Source of the DNA: Somniosus microcephalus
Taxonomy: Eukaryota
Length of the DNA: 64,000 nucleotides
Reading direction: 5' to 3'
Assembly: GCA_052327205.1 (NCBI GenBank)
Contig: CM126204.1
Coordinates: 126,046,001 to 126,110,000, forward strand
This document shows positions 1-53,621 of the stretch, piece after piece. The translations under genes were made by a program, and so were the position numbers. Within the stretch, counting starts at the first letter, position 1. Every line of letters starts with the position of its first letter. The notes beneath the pieces were generated by a model. The model ran no database searches. It was not told the origin of the DNA and was given only the letters and a program-made list of their open reading frames with translations.

Positions 1-951
1 CATGTGTGTTGCCCGTAGAAGGTGGTGACGGGTCTCCCCCTTGAACCGCTGCAGTCCTTACCTTAGTTGCTGACTAAAGAATTTCTCCAATCAGTTTTAG
101 AACCTGCTAATCTTTGCTGTGCATTGAAGTTCAAGCTATCTGGACTGTTGAGATGCCTGATATTAAAGCCCCTGTTTTGAACCTTGGGCAGAAATGCAGT
201 GGTGCTGGCTGAGGGTGCAGACTTGCCTGCACTGGCAATTCACTCCTGATCAAATGAAGGAGTGAATCAAGAAAGATTATTTTCTCTGGTTGGGGAGTCA
301 GTGACAAGGGGTCATCAATTCAAATTGTCACTAAGACAGTGCATAGAGAAAAGTTAGAAAACATTTCTCTATGCAGATGGTTGTTGGAGCACGGAATGCT
401 TTGCCGCAGGGACCACTGCATCTTTAGAAATGCAAGTCTTTGTTTTTTTTACAGTGCCTTTCACGACATCAGACGTCCCAAAGTGCTTTACAGCCAATGA
501 AGTACTTTTGAAGTGTAGGCACTGTTGTAATGTAGGAAATGTGGCAGCCAAATTGCGCACAGCAAACTCCCACAAACAGCACTCCCTCAGCACTGCACTT
601 GAGTGTCAGCCTAGATTTTGTGCTTCAGTCCACTCAGAGGCGAGAGAACTACCAACTGAGCCATGGCTGGCACTGACTAATGGAAAATTAGATAAATAAT
701 TGGAAAGAGCAGGTCAGGGGAATTTGTTTTGGATTGCTCTAGCAAAGTGCTAGCAGAGACACAATGGGCCAAATGGTCTTCTGTGCAATATGGCTCTGCG
801 ATCATAATGATCAGCGCCTTTTCCTTCCACTTTCCCTTCGGAGTTTTTCCGTTTAATTGGCCTGATAGTATTTTTCTTGGTAATTGTAATTTAAAAAAAT
901 AACATTTACAAAACATTGATTTCATCAGAAACAAATAGGTAGCTGCTGTTA

Positions 952-2015
952 TAACAACAGAAAATGCTGGAAAAACTCAGCAGGTCAGGCAACATCTGTG
1001 GAGAGAAATTTGAGTTGACGTTTCGGGTTTGACCCTTCTTCAAAACTGGAGAGAAAAGGAACTAGATCGAAGGCAGGGCTGCGATCGGACAAAAGAATCA
1101 AACACGAGAAGGGAAACTGAAAGTAATGAAGATGAACAAGGTTGAAGAGCCAAACGGAGATCCCGTCGCAGAGAAGAGCAGAACTTCTTCAAGGTAGGCA
1201 TTCCTAGAAGAGGTGTGGCAGTGAACCAAACACTAGTACGATAGCAAAATACTGCAGATGTTGGAAATCCGAAATAACAACAGAAAATGCTGGAAAAACT
1301 CAGCAGGTCAGGCAACATCTGTGGAGAGAAATTTGAGTTGACGTTTCGGGTTTGACCCTTCTTCAAAACTGGAGAGAAAAGGAACTAGATCGAAGGCAGG
1401 GCTGCGATCGGACAAAAGAATCAAACACGAGAAGGGAAACTGAAAGTAATGAAGATGAACAAGGTTGAAGAGCCAAACGGAGATCCCGTCGCAGAGAAGA
1501 GCAGAACTTCTTCAAGGTAGGCATTCCTAGAAGAGGTGTGGCAGTGAACCAAACACTAGTACGATAGCAAAATACTGCAGATGTTGGAAATCCGAAATAA
1601 CAACAGAAAATGCTGGAAAAACTCAGCAGGTCAGGCAACATCTGTGGAGAGAAATTTGAGTTGACGTTTCGGGTTTGACCCTTCTTCAAAACTGGAGAGA
1701 AAAGGAACTAGATCGAAGGCAGGGCTGCGATCGGACAAAAGAATCAAACACGAGAAGGGAAACTGAAAGTAATGAAGATGAACAAGGTTGAAGAGCCAAA
1801 CGGAGATCCCGTCGCAGAGAAGAGCAGAACTTCTTCAAGGTAGGCATTCCTAGAAGAGGTGTGGCAGTGAACCAAACACTAGTACGATAGCAAAATACTG
1901 CAGATGTTGGAAATCCGAAATAACAACAGAAAATGCTGGAAAAACTCAGCAGGTCAGGCAACATCTGTGGAGAGAAATTTGAGTTGACGTTTCGGGTTTG
2001 ACCCTTCTTCAAAAC
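952..2015 (-). mobile_element. Tandem array (3.3 x 323 bp) of a non-autonomous Penelope-derived unit with hammerhead motifs (retrozyme-like)
   Basis: Identical 323-bp units (identical ORFs at 1040, 1363, 1686); TSD AGGTAGCTGCTGTTA at 937-951 and 2016-2030; shares sequence with the Penelope relic at 10560-11830. Confidence 0.8.
1013..1047 (-). ncRNA. Minimal type I hammerhead-like ribozyme motif (also 1336-1370, 1659-1693, 1982-2015)
   Basis: Minus strand reads AGUU-UUGAAGA-A-GGGU(CAA)ACCC-GAAA-C-GUC-AACU: stem I AGUU/AACU, stem II GGGU/ACCC, palindromic stem III, GUC site; C3 is replaced by U. Confidence 0.65.
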
Positions 2016-3499
2016 AGGTAGCTGCTGTTAGTTTTGCTTCCTAATTTTCGAACTACTTTTCAAATTTGTACTGCTACTTTTCACATTTTTAATGCCAATT
2101 CTGGCGCCAACCATTCTCTCCGATTCCTGCCACCTGCTGGAAATGTTAGTACAGTGAAGGGAGGTCGAATGTATTCTTCAGTTGTTCATGGGACACTAGT
2201 TTACACTCAACTTCCAAATCCTTAACCTGATTGAAACCCCCTGATTTAGAGGGAATTAGGTCAAAGGAGCAGGAGGTGGATCTCATGGACAAAATGAGCT
2301 CGGAGAGGGCATGATGGGAGAGAAAGTGGAGCAAGATACGGGTTTGGGGCTAAGTTAAACGGGAGCCTAGTGGCTATGGGAAAGGGGGTAAGCAGCAGAG
2401 GCAGCTGAAGAGATGGTCTCAATTTTAGTAATAAAGAACTCCATGAGGTCCTTGTACTTGTTGGAGGGGGTGAGGGGTTTATAGAGACTGTTGGTAGCGA
2501 AAAGAAGCTGGATGGTATCTTTGCATTCCAGGATAATCCTGGAGTAATAGGCAGTTTGGGGAGAGCAGAGTGCACTGATGGCATTTGATGTGGTCCAGCC
2601 AGATCTGGTAATGGATGTTTAAACCAGTTGTACCAAGCAACCACCACAAGCTCTGACAACAGACCCATTAAGTGTCCTCTTGGGTTGATACAACACGCTC
2701 ATGGGTATTCTCATTACCTATTGTACTTTATATCATCGATATGTGGGAAGGAGCGAATGATAAACTTTTAAGACGAGAGTTTCTCAAAGTGAGGAAACAC
2801 ATTGTAATCTATACTCCTGTTGCAAGACCTGTAACACTTTGAAAGCTTTAACACCGAACTTGCATCATAGAATGATACAGCACAGGAGGGCCATTGTGCC
2901 TGTGTTGGCTCTTTGAAAGAGCTATCCACTGCAGCAACTTGCCAAGTCTTCTTTGACAGCACCTCCCAAATCCATGACTTTTACCACCATGAAGGACAAG
3001 GGCAGCAGGCACATGGGAACACCACCACCTGCAAGTTTCTCTCCAAGTCACACACCAGCCTGACTTGAAAATATATCACCGTTCCTTCATCGTCGCTAAG
3101 TCAAAATCCTGGAACTCCTTCCCCAACAGCACTGTGGAACACCTTCACCTCACGGACTGCAGCGGTTCAAGAAGGCAGCTCACCACCACCTTCTCTGGGG
3201 CAATTAGGGATGGGCTATAAATGCTGGCCTTGTCTGCGATGCCCACATCCCATGAACAAATTTTAAAAAGTTCCACACCCCCTGCTTTTTCCGCATAGCT
3301 ACAGCTACGTGCTTCCTCTACATGTATTTATTTTTGGAAGTTGCTGCTTCCACCACCCTATAAATCTTGGTAAGAATGCAGCATTATTACATAGGAGTTC
3401 TGAGAATGTCTTATGATGCACTTCTTCGGTTACAAAAACACATGCTCTTGCGAAAGTTCTGCTTTAATTGCTTCACTCTGCATCCCACCCCAGCTCTGG

Positions 3500-4449: not shown

Positions 4450-5518
4450 AAAAGGCTGGAGGGGCAGAATGGCCTCCTCCTGCCCCCGTGTAACGGGCTG
4501 GAGGGGCAGAATGGCCTCCTCCCACCCCCCGTGTAACGGGCTGGAGGAGCAGAATGGCCTCCTCCCCCCCCCCCGTGTAACGGGCTGGAGGGGCAGAATG
4601 GCCTCCTCCCGCCCCCGTGTAACGGGCTGGAGGGGCAGAATGGCCTCCTCCCGCCCCCGTGTAACGGGCTGGAGGGGCAGAATGGCCTCCTCCCGCCCCC
4701 GTGTAACGGGCTGGAGGGGCAGAATGGCCTCCTCCCGCCCCCGTGTAACGGGCTGGAGGGGCAGAATGGCCTCCTCCCGCCCCCGTGTAACGGGCTGGAG
4801 GGGCAGAATGGCCTCCTCCCGCCCCCGTGTAACGGGCTGGAGGGGCAGAATGGCCTCCTCCCGCCCCCGTGTAACGGGCTGGAGGGGCAGAATGGCCTCC
4901 TCCCGCCCCCGTGTAACGGGCTGGAGGGGCAGAATGGCCTCCTCCCGCCCCCGTGTAACGGGCTGGAGGGGCAGAATGGCCTCCTCCCGCCCCCGTGTAA
5001 CGGGCTGGAGGGGGCAGAATGGCCTCCTCCCGCCCCCGTGTAACGGGCTGGAGGGGCAGAATGGCCTCCTCCCGCCCCCGTGTAACGGGCGGGAGGGGCA
5101 GAATGGCCTCCTCCCGCCCCCGTGTAACGGGCGGGAGGGGCAGACCGGCCTCCTCCCGCCCCCGTGCAACGGGCGGGAGGGGCAGACCGGCCTCCTCCCG
5201 CCCCCGTGCAACGGGCGGGAGGGGCAGACCGGCCTCCTCCCGCCCCCGTGCAACGGGCGGGAGGGGCAGACCGGCCTCCTCCCGCCCCCGTGCAACGGGC
5301 TGGAGGGGCAGACCGGCTCCTCCCGCCCCCGTGCAACGGGCTGGAGGGGCAGACCGGCCTCCTCCCGCCCCCGTGCAACGGGCTGGAGGGGCAGACCGGC
5401 CTCCTCCCGCCCCCGTGCAAGGGGCTGGAGGGGCAGACCGGCCTCCTCCCGCCCCCGTGCAAGGGGCTGGAGGGGCAGACCGGCCTCCTCCTGCCCCCGT
5501 GTAACGGGCTGGAGGGGC
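4450..5518. repeat. 42-bp GC-rich minisatellite (~25 copies) continuous with a CR1 3' tail
   Basis: Unit GGGCTGGAGGGGCAGAATGGCCTCCTCCCGCCCCCGTGTAAC; begins inside the tail of the CR1 fragment that starts at ~4240. Confidence 0.95.
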
Positions 5519-7876: not shown

Positions 7877-8490
7877 ATGCCTGTGTCCCCCTGCCTCAGC
7901 CCACTTGCTGCTGAAACTCTCATCCATGCTTTTGTTCCCTCCAGACTCAACTATTCCAGTGTTCTCCTGGCTGACCCCCCATCTTTCACACTCCATAAAC
8001 CTGAGCTCATCCAAAACTTTGCCTGTATCCTAACCTGTACCAAGTCCCACTCGCCCATCACCCCTATGCTCGCTAACTAACATTAGCTCCTCCTCCACTA
8101 ACGCCTCGATTTAAAAATTTTCATCCTTGTGTTCAAATCCCTCCATGGCCTCGCCCCTTCCTATCTCCGTAACCTCCTACAACCCTCAGAGAACTCTGCA
8201 TTCAACTCTTGTGCATCCCCCCCCACTTTCTTTGCCGCACTATTGGCAGCCTGGCTTCAGTCGTCTCGGTCCTAACCTCTGGAATTCTCTCCCTAAACCC
8301 CTCCACCTCTCTCTCCATCTTTAAAAAGCTCCTTAAAACCTACCCCTTTGACCGAGCTTTCAGTCATCCATCCTAATATCTCCTCCTTTGGGTTGGTGTC
8401 AGTATTTGTCTGATTACGCTCAAGTCCTGTGAATAGCCTTGGAACGTTTTACTTCGCAAAGGTGCTGCATAAATGCACGCTGTTGTCCAG
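7877..8490 (+). mobile_element. L2-clade LINE 3' fragment (further relics ~2230-2640 -, 14200-14770 -, 15135-15490 +, 19165-20300 +, 38285-38705 +, 44950-45330 -, 59075-59310 -, 62835-63380 +)
   Basis: AETLIHAFVPSRLNYS...LIQN motif; L2 tail aaaggtgctatataaatgcaagttgttg. Confidence 0.8.
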
Positions 8491-8822
8491 CAGTGTGTAA
8501 AGGTGCTGCATAAATGCACGCTGTTGTCCAGCAGTGTGTAAAGGTGCTGCATAAATGCACGCTGTTGTCCAGCAGTGTGTAAAGGTGCTGCATAAATGCA
8601 CGCTGTTGTCCAGCAGTGTGTAAAGGTGCTGCATAAATGCACGCTGTTGTCCAGCAGTGTGTAAAGGTGCTGCATAAATGCACGCTGTTGTCCAGCAGTG
8701 TGTAAAGGTGCTGCATAAATGCACGCTGTTGTCCAGCAGTGTGTAAAGGTGCTGCATAAATGCATGCTGTTGTCCAGCAATGTGTAAAGGTGCTGCATAA
8801 ATGCACGCTGTTGTCCAGCAAT
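8458..8822. repeat. 41-bp minisatellite (~9 copies) at an L2 3' end
   Basis: Unit AAAGGTGCTGCATAAATGCACGCTGTTGTCCAGCAGTGTGT; first part resembles the L2 tail AAAGGTGCTATATAAATGCAAGTTGTTGT. Confidence 0.95.
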
Positions 8823-10559: not shown

Positions 10560-11830
10560 AGTAAAAAGAGAAAATGCTGGAAATACTCAGCAGGTCAGGC
10601 AGCATCTGTGGAGACAGAAAATAAGTTAATGTTCTGGGTCGATGGCTTTTTGTCAGAACTTGAAAAAGTTGGAGGTTTAACAGGTTTTAAACAATTACAG
10701 AGGCAGGTAAGGGGGAGGGGAAGAAAGAACAAAAAGGAAGATCTGTGATAGGGTGGAAGGCAGGAGAGATTAAGTGACAAAGGGGATAAGAACATAAACA
10801 GGAGCAGGAGTAGGCCATACGGCCCCTCGAGCCTGCTCCGCCATTCAATAAGATCATGGATGATCTTCAACTCCACTTTCCCACCCAATCCCTTGATTCC
10901 CTTAAGAGTCCAAAAATCTATCGATCTCGGTGTTAAAAAGCAGTGACCAAAAGAAATTGATAAAATGTAATGTCTAGAAATTACTGCATGTGATAATGCA
11001 TTAATACCTGAACGAGTCGATGATGGTGCAAGACAAAAGGGGGTGGTAATGGGACAAGTAAAGAAACAAAAGATGGGTCTAGAGGAGGTTGAAATGGGAA
11101 TATCAGAATTATTACCAACAGCTGCTGTCCGGGAAAAAATGGGAGCAGTGGTTGTGACCTGAAATTGTTGAATTCAGCATTAAGTCCAGAAGTCACTTTA
11201 CTGTTGAGTCTGGAAGGCTGTCAAGTTCCTCTGTCTCAACATTGGGATGCTGTTCCTCAAGTTTACGTTGTTTCATTGGGACAGTGTGGGAGGCCGAGGA
11301 CAGAGAGGTCACAGTGGGAGTGGGGTGGAGAATTAAAATGACAGGTGACCGGAAGCTCGGGTCACGCTTGCGGACGGAACAGGGGTATTCTGCAAAGTGA
11401 TCGCCTTGGACAAGGGGAACCTTACCGTGGCTTTGGAAAGGAGGGGAAGGGGTGACAGCAGAAGTGTGGGTAATGCGATGGACACGGTCGAGGGCCCTGT
11501 CAACCACTATGTAGAGGAATCCTCAGTTGAGGACAAAGGGAGACATATCGGAAGCACTGGTATTGCATCATCAGAACAGATGACCGAGAAACTGGGAGAA
11601 TGGAATAGAGTCGGAAGCGAGGTGGGAGGAAGTGTAATCAAGATAGCTGAGGAGTCAGTGGGCTTTTAGTGGATATTGGTCGATAGCCCCAGAGATGGAG
11701 ATAGGAAAAGTTGGAGATGAACCATGTGAAGGCGAGGAAAGGGTAGAAATTGGAAGCGAAGTTGATGAAATTTTCCACTTCGGGGCGAGAGCAGGAAGCG
11801 GCACCGATAGTCATCAATGTACTGGAAAAA
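10560..11830 (-). mobile_element. Degenerate Penelope-like element (RT and GIY-YIG remnants, pLTR); CR1 tail inserted at ~10790-10930
   Basis: Minus-strand fragments LFFQYIDD (RT YxDD) and HFAEY...RKLEEQH...GLNAEFNNF (PLE GIY-YIG C-terminus); pLTR matches the 323-bp unit; decayed hammerhead at ~10622-10662. Confidence 0.75.
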
Positions 11831-15769: not shown

Positions 15770-16930
15770 GTATGCCGTGGGGTCCCCAGGGGTCGGAATT
15801 AGGGCCGTTGCTTTTTTCTTTTATATAAATGTCTTGGACTTGAGTATAGGGAGTACAATTTTGAAGTTTGCGGATGATACAAAACTTGGCAACATAGTAA
15901 ATAGTGAGCAGGATAGTATTAGACTTCAGGAGGACATAGAAATGAGCAGACATGTAGCAGATGAAATTTAATTTGGTTTAGTGTGAAGTGATGCACTTTG
16001 GGAGAAGCAACATGGAGAGGCAGTATAATCTAAATGGTTAGTATTGCTGCTATCATTCACACAACATCTAGAGCCATCTTCAGTTTCTTAACTTGTCCCG
16101 TTACCCCTCCTTTTGCCTTGCACGATCATCCCTTTGTCAGTCAATCTCTCCTGCCTATCACAGACTTTCCCTTTGTTCTTTCCTCCCCTCCTCCCTGCCC
16201 CTGCTTAAAAATCTCTCTTCCCAGAACCTTTTCCAGTTCTGACGAAAGGTTCGACCAGAAACGTTGACTCTCTTTCTCTCTCCTCTGCTGCCTGACCTGC
16301 TGAATGTTTCCAGCACTTTGTTATTTCAGATTTCCAGCATCTGCAATATTTTGCTATAATCTAAATAGTGCTATTTTGAGGGGGGTGCACATTCACATGT
16401 CCATGAAGGTGGCAGGGCAAGGTGAGAAGGCAGTTAAGAAAGCGTCTGGGATACTTGGCTTTGTAAATAGGGGCATTGAATACAAAAACAAGGAAGTTAT
16501 GCTGAACCTTAACAAATCACTGGTTGGGCCTCAGCTGGAGTATTGTGTACAGTTCTAGGCACCACACTTTAGGAAGGATGTCAAGGCCTTGGAGGGGAGA
16601 CTAAATAGAGGGATTCAAAATTGAGGGGTTTTCATAGAACGCATAGGGAGAAACTGTTTTCCTCTGACAAGTGGCTCAGTAATCAGAGGTCATGGATTTA
16701 AAATAATTGGCAAAAGAACTGGAGGGGAAATGAGAAATTATTTCACGCAGAGGGTTGTTATGAGCTGGAACGCACTACCTGAAAGGGCGGTGGAATCAGA
16801 TTCCATAGGAACTTTCAAAAGGCAATTGGACATGTATTTGAAGAGAACTAATTTGCCGGGTTATAGGGAAAAAGCTGGGGTGTGGGACTAAATTGGATAG
16901 CTCTTTCGAAGAGCTGTATGATTCTATTCG
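15770..16930 (+). mobile_element. Degenerate CR1 LINE 3' portion
   Basis: KFADDTKLG, PQLEYCVQF, CR1-type tail. Confidence 0.8.
16039..16354 (+). mobile_element. Penelope 3'/pLTR fragment with hammerhead motif, inserted into a CR1 relic
   Basis: AGTT-CTGACGA(16239-16245)-aaggttcgacca-GAAA-CGTT-GACT; TSD TATAATCTAAAT(G/A)GT at 16024-16038 and 16355-16369. Confidence 0.75.
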
Positions 16931-27239: not shown

Positions 27240-27334
27240 TTTCTGATGAAAGGTCATTGACCTGAAACGTTAACTCTTTCTCTCTCCGCAGATGCTGCCT
27301 GACCTGCTGAGTATTGCCAGCATTTTCTGCTTTT
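27240..27334 (+). mobile_element. 95-bp Penelope pLTR insertion with canonical hammerhead core
   Basis: CTGATGA(27243-27249)-A-AGGTC-ATT-GACCT-GAAA-CGTT-AAC; TSD ATTATAAAAA(A)CCT at 27227-27239 and 27335-27348. Confidence 0.75.
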
Positions 27335-27368
27335 ATTATAAAAAACCTGTTGTCTGGACTAAAAAAAA

Positions 27369-35588: not shown

Positions 35589-35660
35589 TAATAACAACAG
35601 AAAATACTGGAAAAACTCAGCAGGCCAGGCAACATCTGTGGAGAGAAATTAGAGTCGACG
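35589..35660 (-). mobile_element. 72-bp Penelope pLTR insertion just upstream of RAB1A exon 5
   Basis: Near-identical to 951-1023; TSD TTTAATCTTCTT at 35577-35588 and 35661-35672. Confidence 0.75.
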
Positions 35661-35688
35661 TTTAATCTTCTTGTTCCTTTTCCTCTAG

Positions 35689-51170: not shown

Positions 51171-51856
51171 CTATTTGAACAAAACATCTACTCAGCTACA
51201 CAAAATTGCAAAGAAACAGGCCATTCGGCCCAACTAGTCAGTGCTGGTGTTTATGTTCCACACGAGTCTCCTCCCATTCCATCTGCCTCATCTCAGCCTT
51301 TCAGCATATCTTTCTATTCCCTTTTCTCCCATGTACTCGTCTAGTTTCCTTTTGAAAGCATCTAAGCTATTCGCCTCAACCACTTCCTGTGGTAGCGAGT
51401 TCCACATTCTAACCACACTCCTGTAAATAAATGTCTCCTTATTTCCCCGATTAGAATCATTAGTAACTATCTTGTATTGATGGCCCCTAGTTTTGGATTC
51501 TCCCACAAAGGGAAACTTTCTCTCCACATCTACCCTCCCAACCTATTCATCATTTTAAAGACCTCCAGAGAAGAGAAGATTTAGAGGTGACATGATTAAA
51601 GAAAAAATATGCCCAACCTATTCAATCTTTCCCGATAGCTGTAGAGGAAATTGTGGCGAATACAGCAGGCCAGCACACTTCAGATAGATCCTCATTAGCA
51701 CTTTTCTCAGTTTAAAAAAGACAAAACACATTTCAAAATTAAAACCATTGCAACTAGAATTTCATCTATTAATTTGCTTTTGGTTTCCAGATTGCTTAAT
51801 TCAATAATTTTGTGCAAGCAACTTTATTCTGCTTTCAAAGAAATGTAATGTTTTAC

Positions 51857-53401
51857 CTGAATGTGAACCAGAAGACTATCATCATTCTTCTGCTCCTCAG
51901 TGCCTTGTTGGAGCTGCTGGTTGGACATCAATTGAGAACCAGGCCACCTGCCTAGCTTTTCTATAAAGTCATGGGCCCTTTTCAATTCCACGATTGTATC
52001 TTCACTCCCTGGACCCTTGGATGTATTTATGGGGCCACTTTCCAGTTGGCAGGTTGATTGGGCAACTTCAGCACCGCCGACGTGGTCAACGACGGTATCC
52101 TCAGTGCCACCACCTTGAATGTCTGTGTCCTTTGTTGTCTTTACGATCCCCTCTTTTGTGTTGGTCGCGTAGGTTGATTTGTTATCCAAGTGAACGGAGA
52201 TGTTCTCCAATTGCTGAGCTAAAACTTCCAACTCATTCAGTTTGTACGGAAGAGCCAGGTACTCCTCATCGCTCTCCCATTCCTTATTTAAGGGAAGTAT
52301 CTGTGTTGTGGGTATGAAGCCTACAGGGTCTCTTCCTGATATTAAGTGGTTGGAAAATCCTTCATATGAGCTCTTGGATAGAAAACTGGAATCGGCAACT
52401 GAAGTGGCCAAGGAGCAGTCAGATGTGATTGCACGGTTAATCAAACTCTCTGAGAGTTGCGTTTTATTGATTGTGGAACGTTCCACAAAGGGAGTTGGCG
52501 TTACACTAGCTTTATAGGTTGAATGAGAGGTCAAATTGGAAGGCTGGTTATACATGTGCAAAGGACTGGAGGAACGACGAGGAGGGTCCATATTTCCTCC
52601 GTGGCTGTTATAACCCCAGGCTGGGTTAGCAGTGTTGCTGGTACTAGAGTGGTAGGCAGGGAACAACAGCATACTCTTTGATGTTATTGTATTTGACAGA
52701 GAGGGCAAAGAACTGTCAGCCACGATGCCTGAATCCTTTAAACACGAGTCAGAGGACAAATCATCACCATCTAAAGAGTCCTTGGAGGTGTAATGCCCTG
52801 GTCTTAAGGGATATGTAAAATCAAGCAAAGCCTGGTATTCCTCATCAGGGTCCCAATCAGGTAAAGTCCGATCTCTAGATGGTCTGAAAGAATCGGGAGG
52901 TCTACATGCCCAGTAATCTGATATGTAGGGCAGCATCTCTTTTCTATACAGAGGTTTAAGATTAGAGACGGTAGGGGCAAGGCACCCATTAGAAATTTGG
53001 CCCAATGACGTATATTTGTGTAACTTTATATTTTGTATGCTTAATGTGGTCTTTCTTTTTGGCAAACATGGAGAGAAAGTACAAGTATCCCAAGTACTGT
53101 ACCTTGGAGAGGACAGGCACCTTCGACTGTCCGGTCTTTCAACCTCATTGTTCTTTGGTGATGGTGGTGATGAAATGCTAAGTCTCGCCATCTTCTGATC
53201 AAATCTACCACTTAGTTCATTTGTTCGAGAAACTGAAGGTGGCGAAGATTTCAGGTGATCTACAGAATACGAAGACTGGACAGATTCGCAAGGCAGATAG
53301 TTGGTCCCATTGTCACTCACGCTTTGCGATGGTACTACTCTTGATGAATATCCAGAATTTGGGAGGGAAAATCTTTTATTCAGCTCCTGCATATCAACTA
53401 C
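51857..53401 (-). CDS. CEP68: CEP68 large internal coding exon (515 codons)
   Basis: ORF contains YWACRPPDS...WDPDEEYQALLDFTYPLRP, DSGIVADS and ESDEEYLALP, all recognisable CEP68 blocks; acceptor ttttgaag|GTA, donor CAG|gtaaaa; RAB1A-CEP68 tail-to-tail synteny is known in vertebrates. Confidence 0.88.
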
Positions 53402-53621
53402 CTTCAAAAGGAGGTGAAGTGATTATTAAATATGCTTTTCTCTATAAAAAACATCAAATATTCATACGATATTTTCCATTGTTTTTATGTTTACAAGACT
53501 TCTTTCGACATATAATGGTAAACTCAGCAATCACTTGTAGCCAGACTGGGGGGTGGTGGTAAAAGGGCATTAGTGACATTTTTAGAATGTGGCAGCTTTC
53601 GTGGTAATTGACATACTCCGG

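Follow-up and report, generated by a model that had tools for sequence, protein, structure and literature searches.

Two groups of described elements lie closest to the locus reported here, animal non-LTR retrozymes and Penelope-like elements (PLEs). A 2026 preprint (10.64898/2026.07.22.740005) ties retrozymes to pLTRs, describes them from one chondrichthyan, gives a mean consensus of 363 bp and proposes local amplification for their arrays, leaving the mechanism open. For tandem PLEs, copying of a circular template was proposed already in 2014. The minimal hammerheads of PLEs are described as cutting weakly even as dimers, and in an in vitro study of a lizard PLE, insertion is reported not to be impaired in hammerhead-dead mutants (PMC11167929). 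How animal retrozymes and PLE tandem arrays originate, and whether PLEs need their hammerhead, are questions on which the genome examined here bears. Here, we report the analysis of a tandem array in a 64,000-nt stretch of Somniosus microcephalus DNA (the window). Our preferred reading, which we hold with evenly balanced confidence, is that the array is a single Penelope-type insertion, in which the element's reverse transcriptase (RT) copied one short RNA repeatedly, jumping from its 5′ end to its 3′ end.

Structure of the array

The array spans positions 951–2015 and comprises 3.3 copies of a 323-bp period with 100% matches (Tandem Repeats Finder). An exact 15-bp direct repeat flanks it at 937–951 and 2016–2030, and the final A of the left copy is also the element's first base. 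A preliminary description had read the head-to-tail identical units inside one exact target-site duplication (TSD) as a single insertion, and this reading stands. The TSD, at 15 bp, is longer than 4 bp, and the array is non-coding apart from a 53-codon remnant. Its left end is the tail-less start site found in many copies of the parent element described below, whereas on the right it is 5′-truncated at unit position 96; the array has 96 nt of terminal redundancy. The features are as follows.

937..951, plus strand: left target-site duplication, 15 bp, last base common to the element
951..2015, minus strand: entire insertion, 3.3 units, the element's sense being the minus strand
951..1273, minus strand: unit 1
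951..1098, minus strand: parent pLTR and 3′ UTR part of unit 1 (parent positions 1–148)
1013..1047, minus strand: minimal type I hammerhead 1, U3–G8 core, predicted cut between 1017 and 1016
1097..1098, and again 1420–1421 and 1743–1744, no strand: unit-forming junction, 2-nt microhomology
1097..1201, minus strand: opening 35 codons of the parent ORF, counted from the likely start, with a stop in frame 18 codons past the junction
1097..1273, minus strand: parent 5′ part of unit 1, with ORF start, leader and tail (parent positions 2974–3150)
1274..1596, minus strand: unit 2
1336..1370, minus strand: minimal hammerhead 2
1597..1919, minus strand: unit 3
1659..1693, minus strand: minimal hammerhead 3
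1920..2015, minus strand: partial unit 4, 96 nt
1982..2015, minus strand: hammerhead 4, stem I shortened by the truncation
2016..2030, plus strand: right target-site duplication, 15 bp

The left junction of the array was recovered on one unbroken contig in both of two DNA runs, one of which may be the assembly's source. The run that carries another organism label (X2) contained 95% of the sampled words together with this junction; if it truly represents another species, the insertion is older than the species split despite its identical units.

Elsewhere in the window, the minus strand holds a 532-codon open frame at 51827–53422 without a Pfam match. This frame is perhaps a large host exon, in which case the array may have inserted in or near that gene. 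Fragments of pLTRs from related Penelope families lie at 10562–10639, 16232–16357, 27241–27337 and 35590–35663, the one at 16.2 kb having a canonical C3 core. Two young-looking minisatellites are present at 4454–5518 (42 bp × 25.3, 97%) and 8458–8820 (41 bp × 8.9, 99%), both of which we take to resemble retroelement 3′ ends.

The unit is a piece of a Penelope-like element

Hammerhead pairs spaced about 3,150 bp apart led to the parent, a PLE of 3,150–3,155 bp. Its copy at locus L064 has an open 955-aa frame with matches to RVT_1 (E 3e-4) and, at the C terminus, GIY-YIG (E 1e-3), both below Pfam's cut-offs, and with a CX4CxxC linker before GIY-YIG. A CX2-5CxxC linker at this place is described as a Neptune/Nematis feature (PMC8557442), and the linker places the parent, a putative EN+ PLE, in the Neptune or Nematis type; searching the PDB with the parent protein gave no match. 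Judged from its sequences, the parent family appears young and autonomous, with intact-looking frames.

Compared with the parent copy L063, the window unit agrees at 323 of 325 nt; it is split at parent positions 148/2974 and omits 2.83 kb of the parent ORF. The preliminary description had envisaged a ribozyme-based non-autonomous family mobilised in trans, which does not agree with a unit that is the autonomous element's own piece (2 differences in 325 nt). The Penelope-type machinery that it invoked is borne out, as the unit is part of a PLE and the array has the sense and start site of ordinary parent copies. The left ends of parent copies lie in the tail (3105–3123) or at position 1, that is, at two start sites with an optional tail of 30–40 bp, and inverted arms are present; two start sites are likewise shown for the lizard PLE (PMC11167929).

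A family-wide U3 hammerhead core

Each whole unit carries on the minus strand a minimal type I hammerhead comprising stem I (AGUU/AACU), the core U3-UGAAGA..GAAA, a 4-bp stem II and an ACGU palindrome. In hammerhead 1, C17 is at plus-strand position 1017 and U3 at 1043, with G at core position 8. The motif thus recurs every 323 nt as claimed, with the exception that only three of the four are whole, the fourth missing the last base of stem I. An Rfam search returned four weak matches here, none of them a hammerhead, and shuffled sequences folded as well as the motif alone (z 0.52 and 0.71). What identifies the motif is therefore its agreement with the consensus pattern, together with its position inside the pLTR of a PLE.

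With U3 facing G8, the Watson–Crick pair is broken and the canonical paired 3–8 core is absent. Positions C3 and G8 are described as paired, and the natural change on record in these sources is the compensated U3–A8 (PMC3088659, PMC4209133); a U3 variant with inserted bases is mentioned in PMC7151607. The C3-to-U change had been noted for the array, where it is indeed present, but it is not specific to it: genome-wide, the exact hammerhead pattern occurs in 11,254 copies with U3 vs 23 with C3, making U3 the fixed state of the parent family, and the remainder of the core and the ACGU palindrome are retained in all 11,254. Because the unit is a piece of the parent pLTR and 3′ UTR, the array inherited its hammerhead and U3 core. 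An apparently young, autonomous PLE family of more than 11,000 copies therefore keeps an uncompensated U3–G8 core, which makes it a test case for whether PLE ribozymes are needed.

We also looked at where copies end. In the U3 family, 39 copies end at the cut site, vs 29 and 25 at control positions (P 0.10, blurred by small indels); the same count in a C3 family is 296 vs 261, without a peak and likewise blurred by indels, so that such counts are a weak test for a cleavage footprint. Second-pass ends adjoin the cut site, at 67–68, in 3 of 38 cases (a post hoc count), a hint that the U3 ribozyme may sometimes cut. Two RNA runs covered the element on both strands and contained mini-type joints (see below) in 3 and 5 reads, with reads from many loci; starts did not peak at the cut site, and neither RNA ends nor a short RNA were observed, in libraries of a type that may lose circles.

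Short units arise repeatedly

The exact junction of the window unit occurs five times in the genome at two loci, three times in the array and twice in L004. L004 has a single forward hammerhead and differs from the array in its allele at unit position 47, so neither locus is simply derived from the other. The idea that a shared allele connects them was rejected, the changes being at different positions (46 and 47). T at position 47 was also rejected as a private mutation, being present in 101 ordinary copies, with 13 both-arm pairs among the 100 matches listed; this allele appears to be inherited from an ordinary parent lineage.

For an unbiased sample, we turned to an ORF-start motif with 1,915 matches. 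Of its first 100 places, 90 were examined, corresponding to 89 loci; the ten left out were three minis already in the set (L029, L043), two second matches in examined loci and five others. The loci comprised 43 full-length-type copies, 38 copies with short joined units, which we denote minis, 4 small deletions and 4 complex cases. The units of minis are 190–561 nt long (median 313), with the ORF-side break at parent positions 2908–3048, and their cores are C3 in 7, U3 in 12, both in 1 and unscored in 18. Among the 38 sampled minis, all junction sequences differ save possibly one pair, although a sample of less than 5% of the genome rules out large junction-sharing families only. If the sampled share holds, we infer several hundred minis genome-wide.

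Where junctions recur, they do so across lineages. L011 and L027 have an identical junction in different parent subfamilies, an assignment for which only the subfamily differences were used, the tree being crude (24 rows dropped, long branches misaligned). The junction of L022, an array of 6.5 units, is found at three loci, all in different parent subfamilies, so that L022 has neither founder nor offspring in its own subfamily. Three pairs of minis have equal structure (L015/L016, L018/L019 and L028/L046), the first two also sharing flanks, and are probably segmental duplicates rather than separate insertions. Splicing or back-splicing was rejected as a source of the junctions: donor-like and acceptor-like sites lie near the ends, yet the junctions miss them and do not follow GT-AG. 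Taken as a population, the minis look like recurrent independent one-off births rather than a spreading family.

Related arrays that were born multimeric

Other TSD-flanked multimers, which the preliminary description had predicted, are present in the genome. Nine arrays (L010, L013, L028, L029, L048, L099, L111, L153 and L154) have at least two junctions in one arm and would have no terminal redundancy if collapsed. Lacking a terminal repeat once reduced to one junction, they cannot have been built by unequal crossover. Eight insertions (L004, L012, L013, L027, L029, L106, L153 and L207) share a junction between both inverted arms. Together, the arrays born multimeric and the junctions shared between arms indicate that the template was short and was read more than once, in agreement with the earlier proposal that one short template was copied repeatedly. 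For the window array itself, given its 96-nt redundancy, we infer multimeric birth from these relatives.

Single insertions can be composite. At L005:440–2182, one 15-bp TSD surrounds a mini arm of 2.2 units and, in inverted orientation, a parent arm of 1 kb; this insertion thus drew either on both kinds of template or on a composite RNA. The older insertion L111 repeats a junction at the cut site but has no hammerhead core; L159 runs on into parent sequence instead. Two jumps through internal ORF pieces are seen in L166, L159, L097 and L190, with the inverted arms of L166 sharing the first jump. Copies at L202:1218 and L152:1051 start directly at parent positions 3020 and 2914, within the range of mini junctions, as if primed at an RNA 3′ end.

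Template jumping and alternative routes

In the mechanism that we propose, the short RNA would span the pLTR–ORF boundary. Its 5′ end, produced by transcription initiation or by breakage, would lie 130–210 nt into the 3′ UTR, and its 3′ end near parent position 2910–3048. The parent protein would bind this RNA, nick the target and start internally at the tail or tail-less site. On reaching the RNA 5′ end, the cDNA would pair by 1–2 nt with the RNA 3′ end and copying would continue, for 3.3 passes in the window array. The hammerhead would be a passenger, mostly uncut. As to a transcription start, the ends of full-length copies spread widely without a clear cluster, and the RNA runs gave no start peak.

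Microhomology favours such jumping. From 36 junctions that passed the alignment filter, we dropped five with apparent insertions and the duplicate L004, leaving 30 clean junctions with microhomology of 0 nt in 7, 1 nt in 9, 2 nt in 12, 3 nt in 1 and 5 nt in 1, the last depending on the chosen parent copy. At least 2 nt are shared at 14 of the 30, vs 6.7 expected from random joins (P 0.003) or 8.8 from permuted ends (P 0.03), and none at 7, vs 14.8 or 12.7 expected, respectively. This excess is modest, the mean not being significant under the stricter permuted-ends null (P 0.10), but an excess at 1–2 nt fits end-to-end template jumping, and non-LTR RTs are described as jumping between template ends, 5′ to 3′, most readily when one base pair can form (10.1101/792986). 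For a PLE enzyme, no demonstration of template jumping was found in the literature as far as it was covered.

The uniformity of junctions within each insertion counts against jumping. All 50 junction copies in 20 insertions are joined at an identical place within their insertion (L045 gave no match, and one chance match was dropped), whereas independent jumps might be expected to vary, and this favours a covalent join in the template. A host ligase could have closed the same short pieces of PLE RNA into covalent circles, joining ends that the ribozyme did not produce, before rolling-circle reverse transcription. Such a circle would account for the perfect repetition of junctions, their independent recurrence and the multimeric births, and L111 joins an end at the ribozyme cut site to a non-ribozyme end. 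Under blunt ligation, however, about half of the junctions should lack microhomology, whereas 7 of 30 did; junctions that do not follow GT-AG speak against closure by back-splicing, and the monomer is not self-paired (z 0.37). On balance we regard a ligase-made circle as unlikely, though a serious competitor.

Less probable still, and in our view improbable, is the retrozyme route of the preliminary description, in which the transcript of a genomic founder with two hammerheads would cleave itself as a dimer, close into a circle at the cut site and serve in trans as a template. The tandem units, minimal hammerheads, TSD and size fit non-LTR retrozymes as described (PMC7229834; 10.64898/2026.07.22.740005), the conservation of the rest of the core and of the palindrome across the 11,254 copies is compatible with function, a second locus (L004) has the same junction, and ends near the cut site are in weak excess. 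Yet the sole other locus, L004, bears a single forward hammerhead and differs in its allele at 47, the 6.5-mer L022 has no founder, and the U3–G8 core, with its broken Watson–Crick pair, differs from the compensated change on record. An independent retrozyme family is further contradicted by a junction that sits 80 nt from the cut site and occurs at two loci only, by a U3 that is parental and by L111, which repeats its junction without a core. As L111 does so, and as hammerhead-dead lizard PLE mutants still insert, the ribozyme is probably not needed.

We judge it very improbable that an insertion of 1.3 units and a single junction expanded in place, with unequal crossover or slippage acting on the 96-nt terminal repeat. 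The window array has the required redundancy, and local amplification is the route proposed in 10.64898/2026.07.22.740005, but two expansions without mutation in 1,065 bp would be required, the nine arrays above cannot have formed like this, and junctions are shared by inverted arms. Duplication of a single unit by the assembly is scarcely credible: the units are 100% identical and their number is taken from the assembly rather than from reads, but the 1.07-kb array lies in a chromosome-scale contig, its left junction is present in read contigs and the units of related arrays differ by point changes.

Returning to template jumping, a broader claim follows, which we put forward tentatively and a little short of even confidence: Penelope RT may synthesise repeats in the manner of telomerase, using short linear stretches of its own RNA and no ribozyme, and may thereby have produced retrozyme-like arrays hundreds of times in this genome; animal retrozymes and PLE-derived satellites may have originated by this route. 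A literature search, mostly of titles and the starts of abstracts, found no report of recurrent end-joined PLE minis or of a family-wide U3–G8 core. What makes the window array valuable is the pattern across its family, from which a mechanism of birth suggests itself. In this genome, a seemingly young parent whose frames look intact is found beside many minis that arose independently and whose ends are mapped, and the core mutation extends through the whole family; three claims thereby become directly testable: that multimers are born at insertion, that the joint is not the ribozyme site and that cleavage is dispensable. Screens that take tandem hammerheads for active retrozymes may count by-products.

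Comparison with known systems

The window array resembles a retrozyme yet lacks three features that we tested: a paired 3–8 core, a self-paired monomer and a multi-copy family of its own. It shares with animal non-LTR retrozymes, as described in PMC7229834 and 10.64898/2026.07.22.740005, tandem non-coding units of a few hundred bp (within 150–450 bp), each with a type I hammerhead (here minimal, with a non-canonical core), long TSDs and homology to pLTRs. In contrast to them, the unit is a two-part piece of a live parent, junctions are mostly one per locus and independently recurrent, the core is U3–G8 and the predicted fold of the monomer is no better than shuffles (z 0.37); the array is known here from DNA sequence. 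As to spread, the window junction is found at two loci and that of L022 at three, in three subfamilies. Arrays of this kind with a C3 core may well be included in the counts of the 2026 preprint's screen.

Neptune-type EN+ PLEs with minimal hammerheads, as described in PMC4209133 and PMC8557442, share with the parent the RT, the CX4CxxC linker and the C-terminal GIY-YIG, a pLTR hammerhead and partial tandems. They differ in that the window unit lacks 2.83 kb of ORF and is repeated, and in the uncompensated U3 core fixed in the parent family. In mechanism, Poseidon PAc (PMC11167929) is described with the same tail and tail-less start sites and inverted arms as the parent. Non-autonomous Chlamys PLEs such as MRC1 are likewise non-coding PLE derivatives with multicopy head-to-tail insertions; the MRC1 clade is described as mostly without canonical hammerheads and its members as spreading families (PMC8557442), whereas the minis here look like repeated one-off births. 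Beyond PLEs, whose RTs are described as the closest kin of telomerase, the concatemeric cDNA of DRT2 and the products of telomerase (PMC12039810) are alike in that an RT returns to the start of a linear RNA and so produces tandem repeats. The analogy is functional only: those systems are described as programmed and as using a dedicated RNA, whereas here the ends vary and the product goes into the genome.
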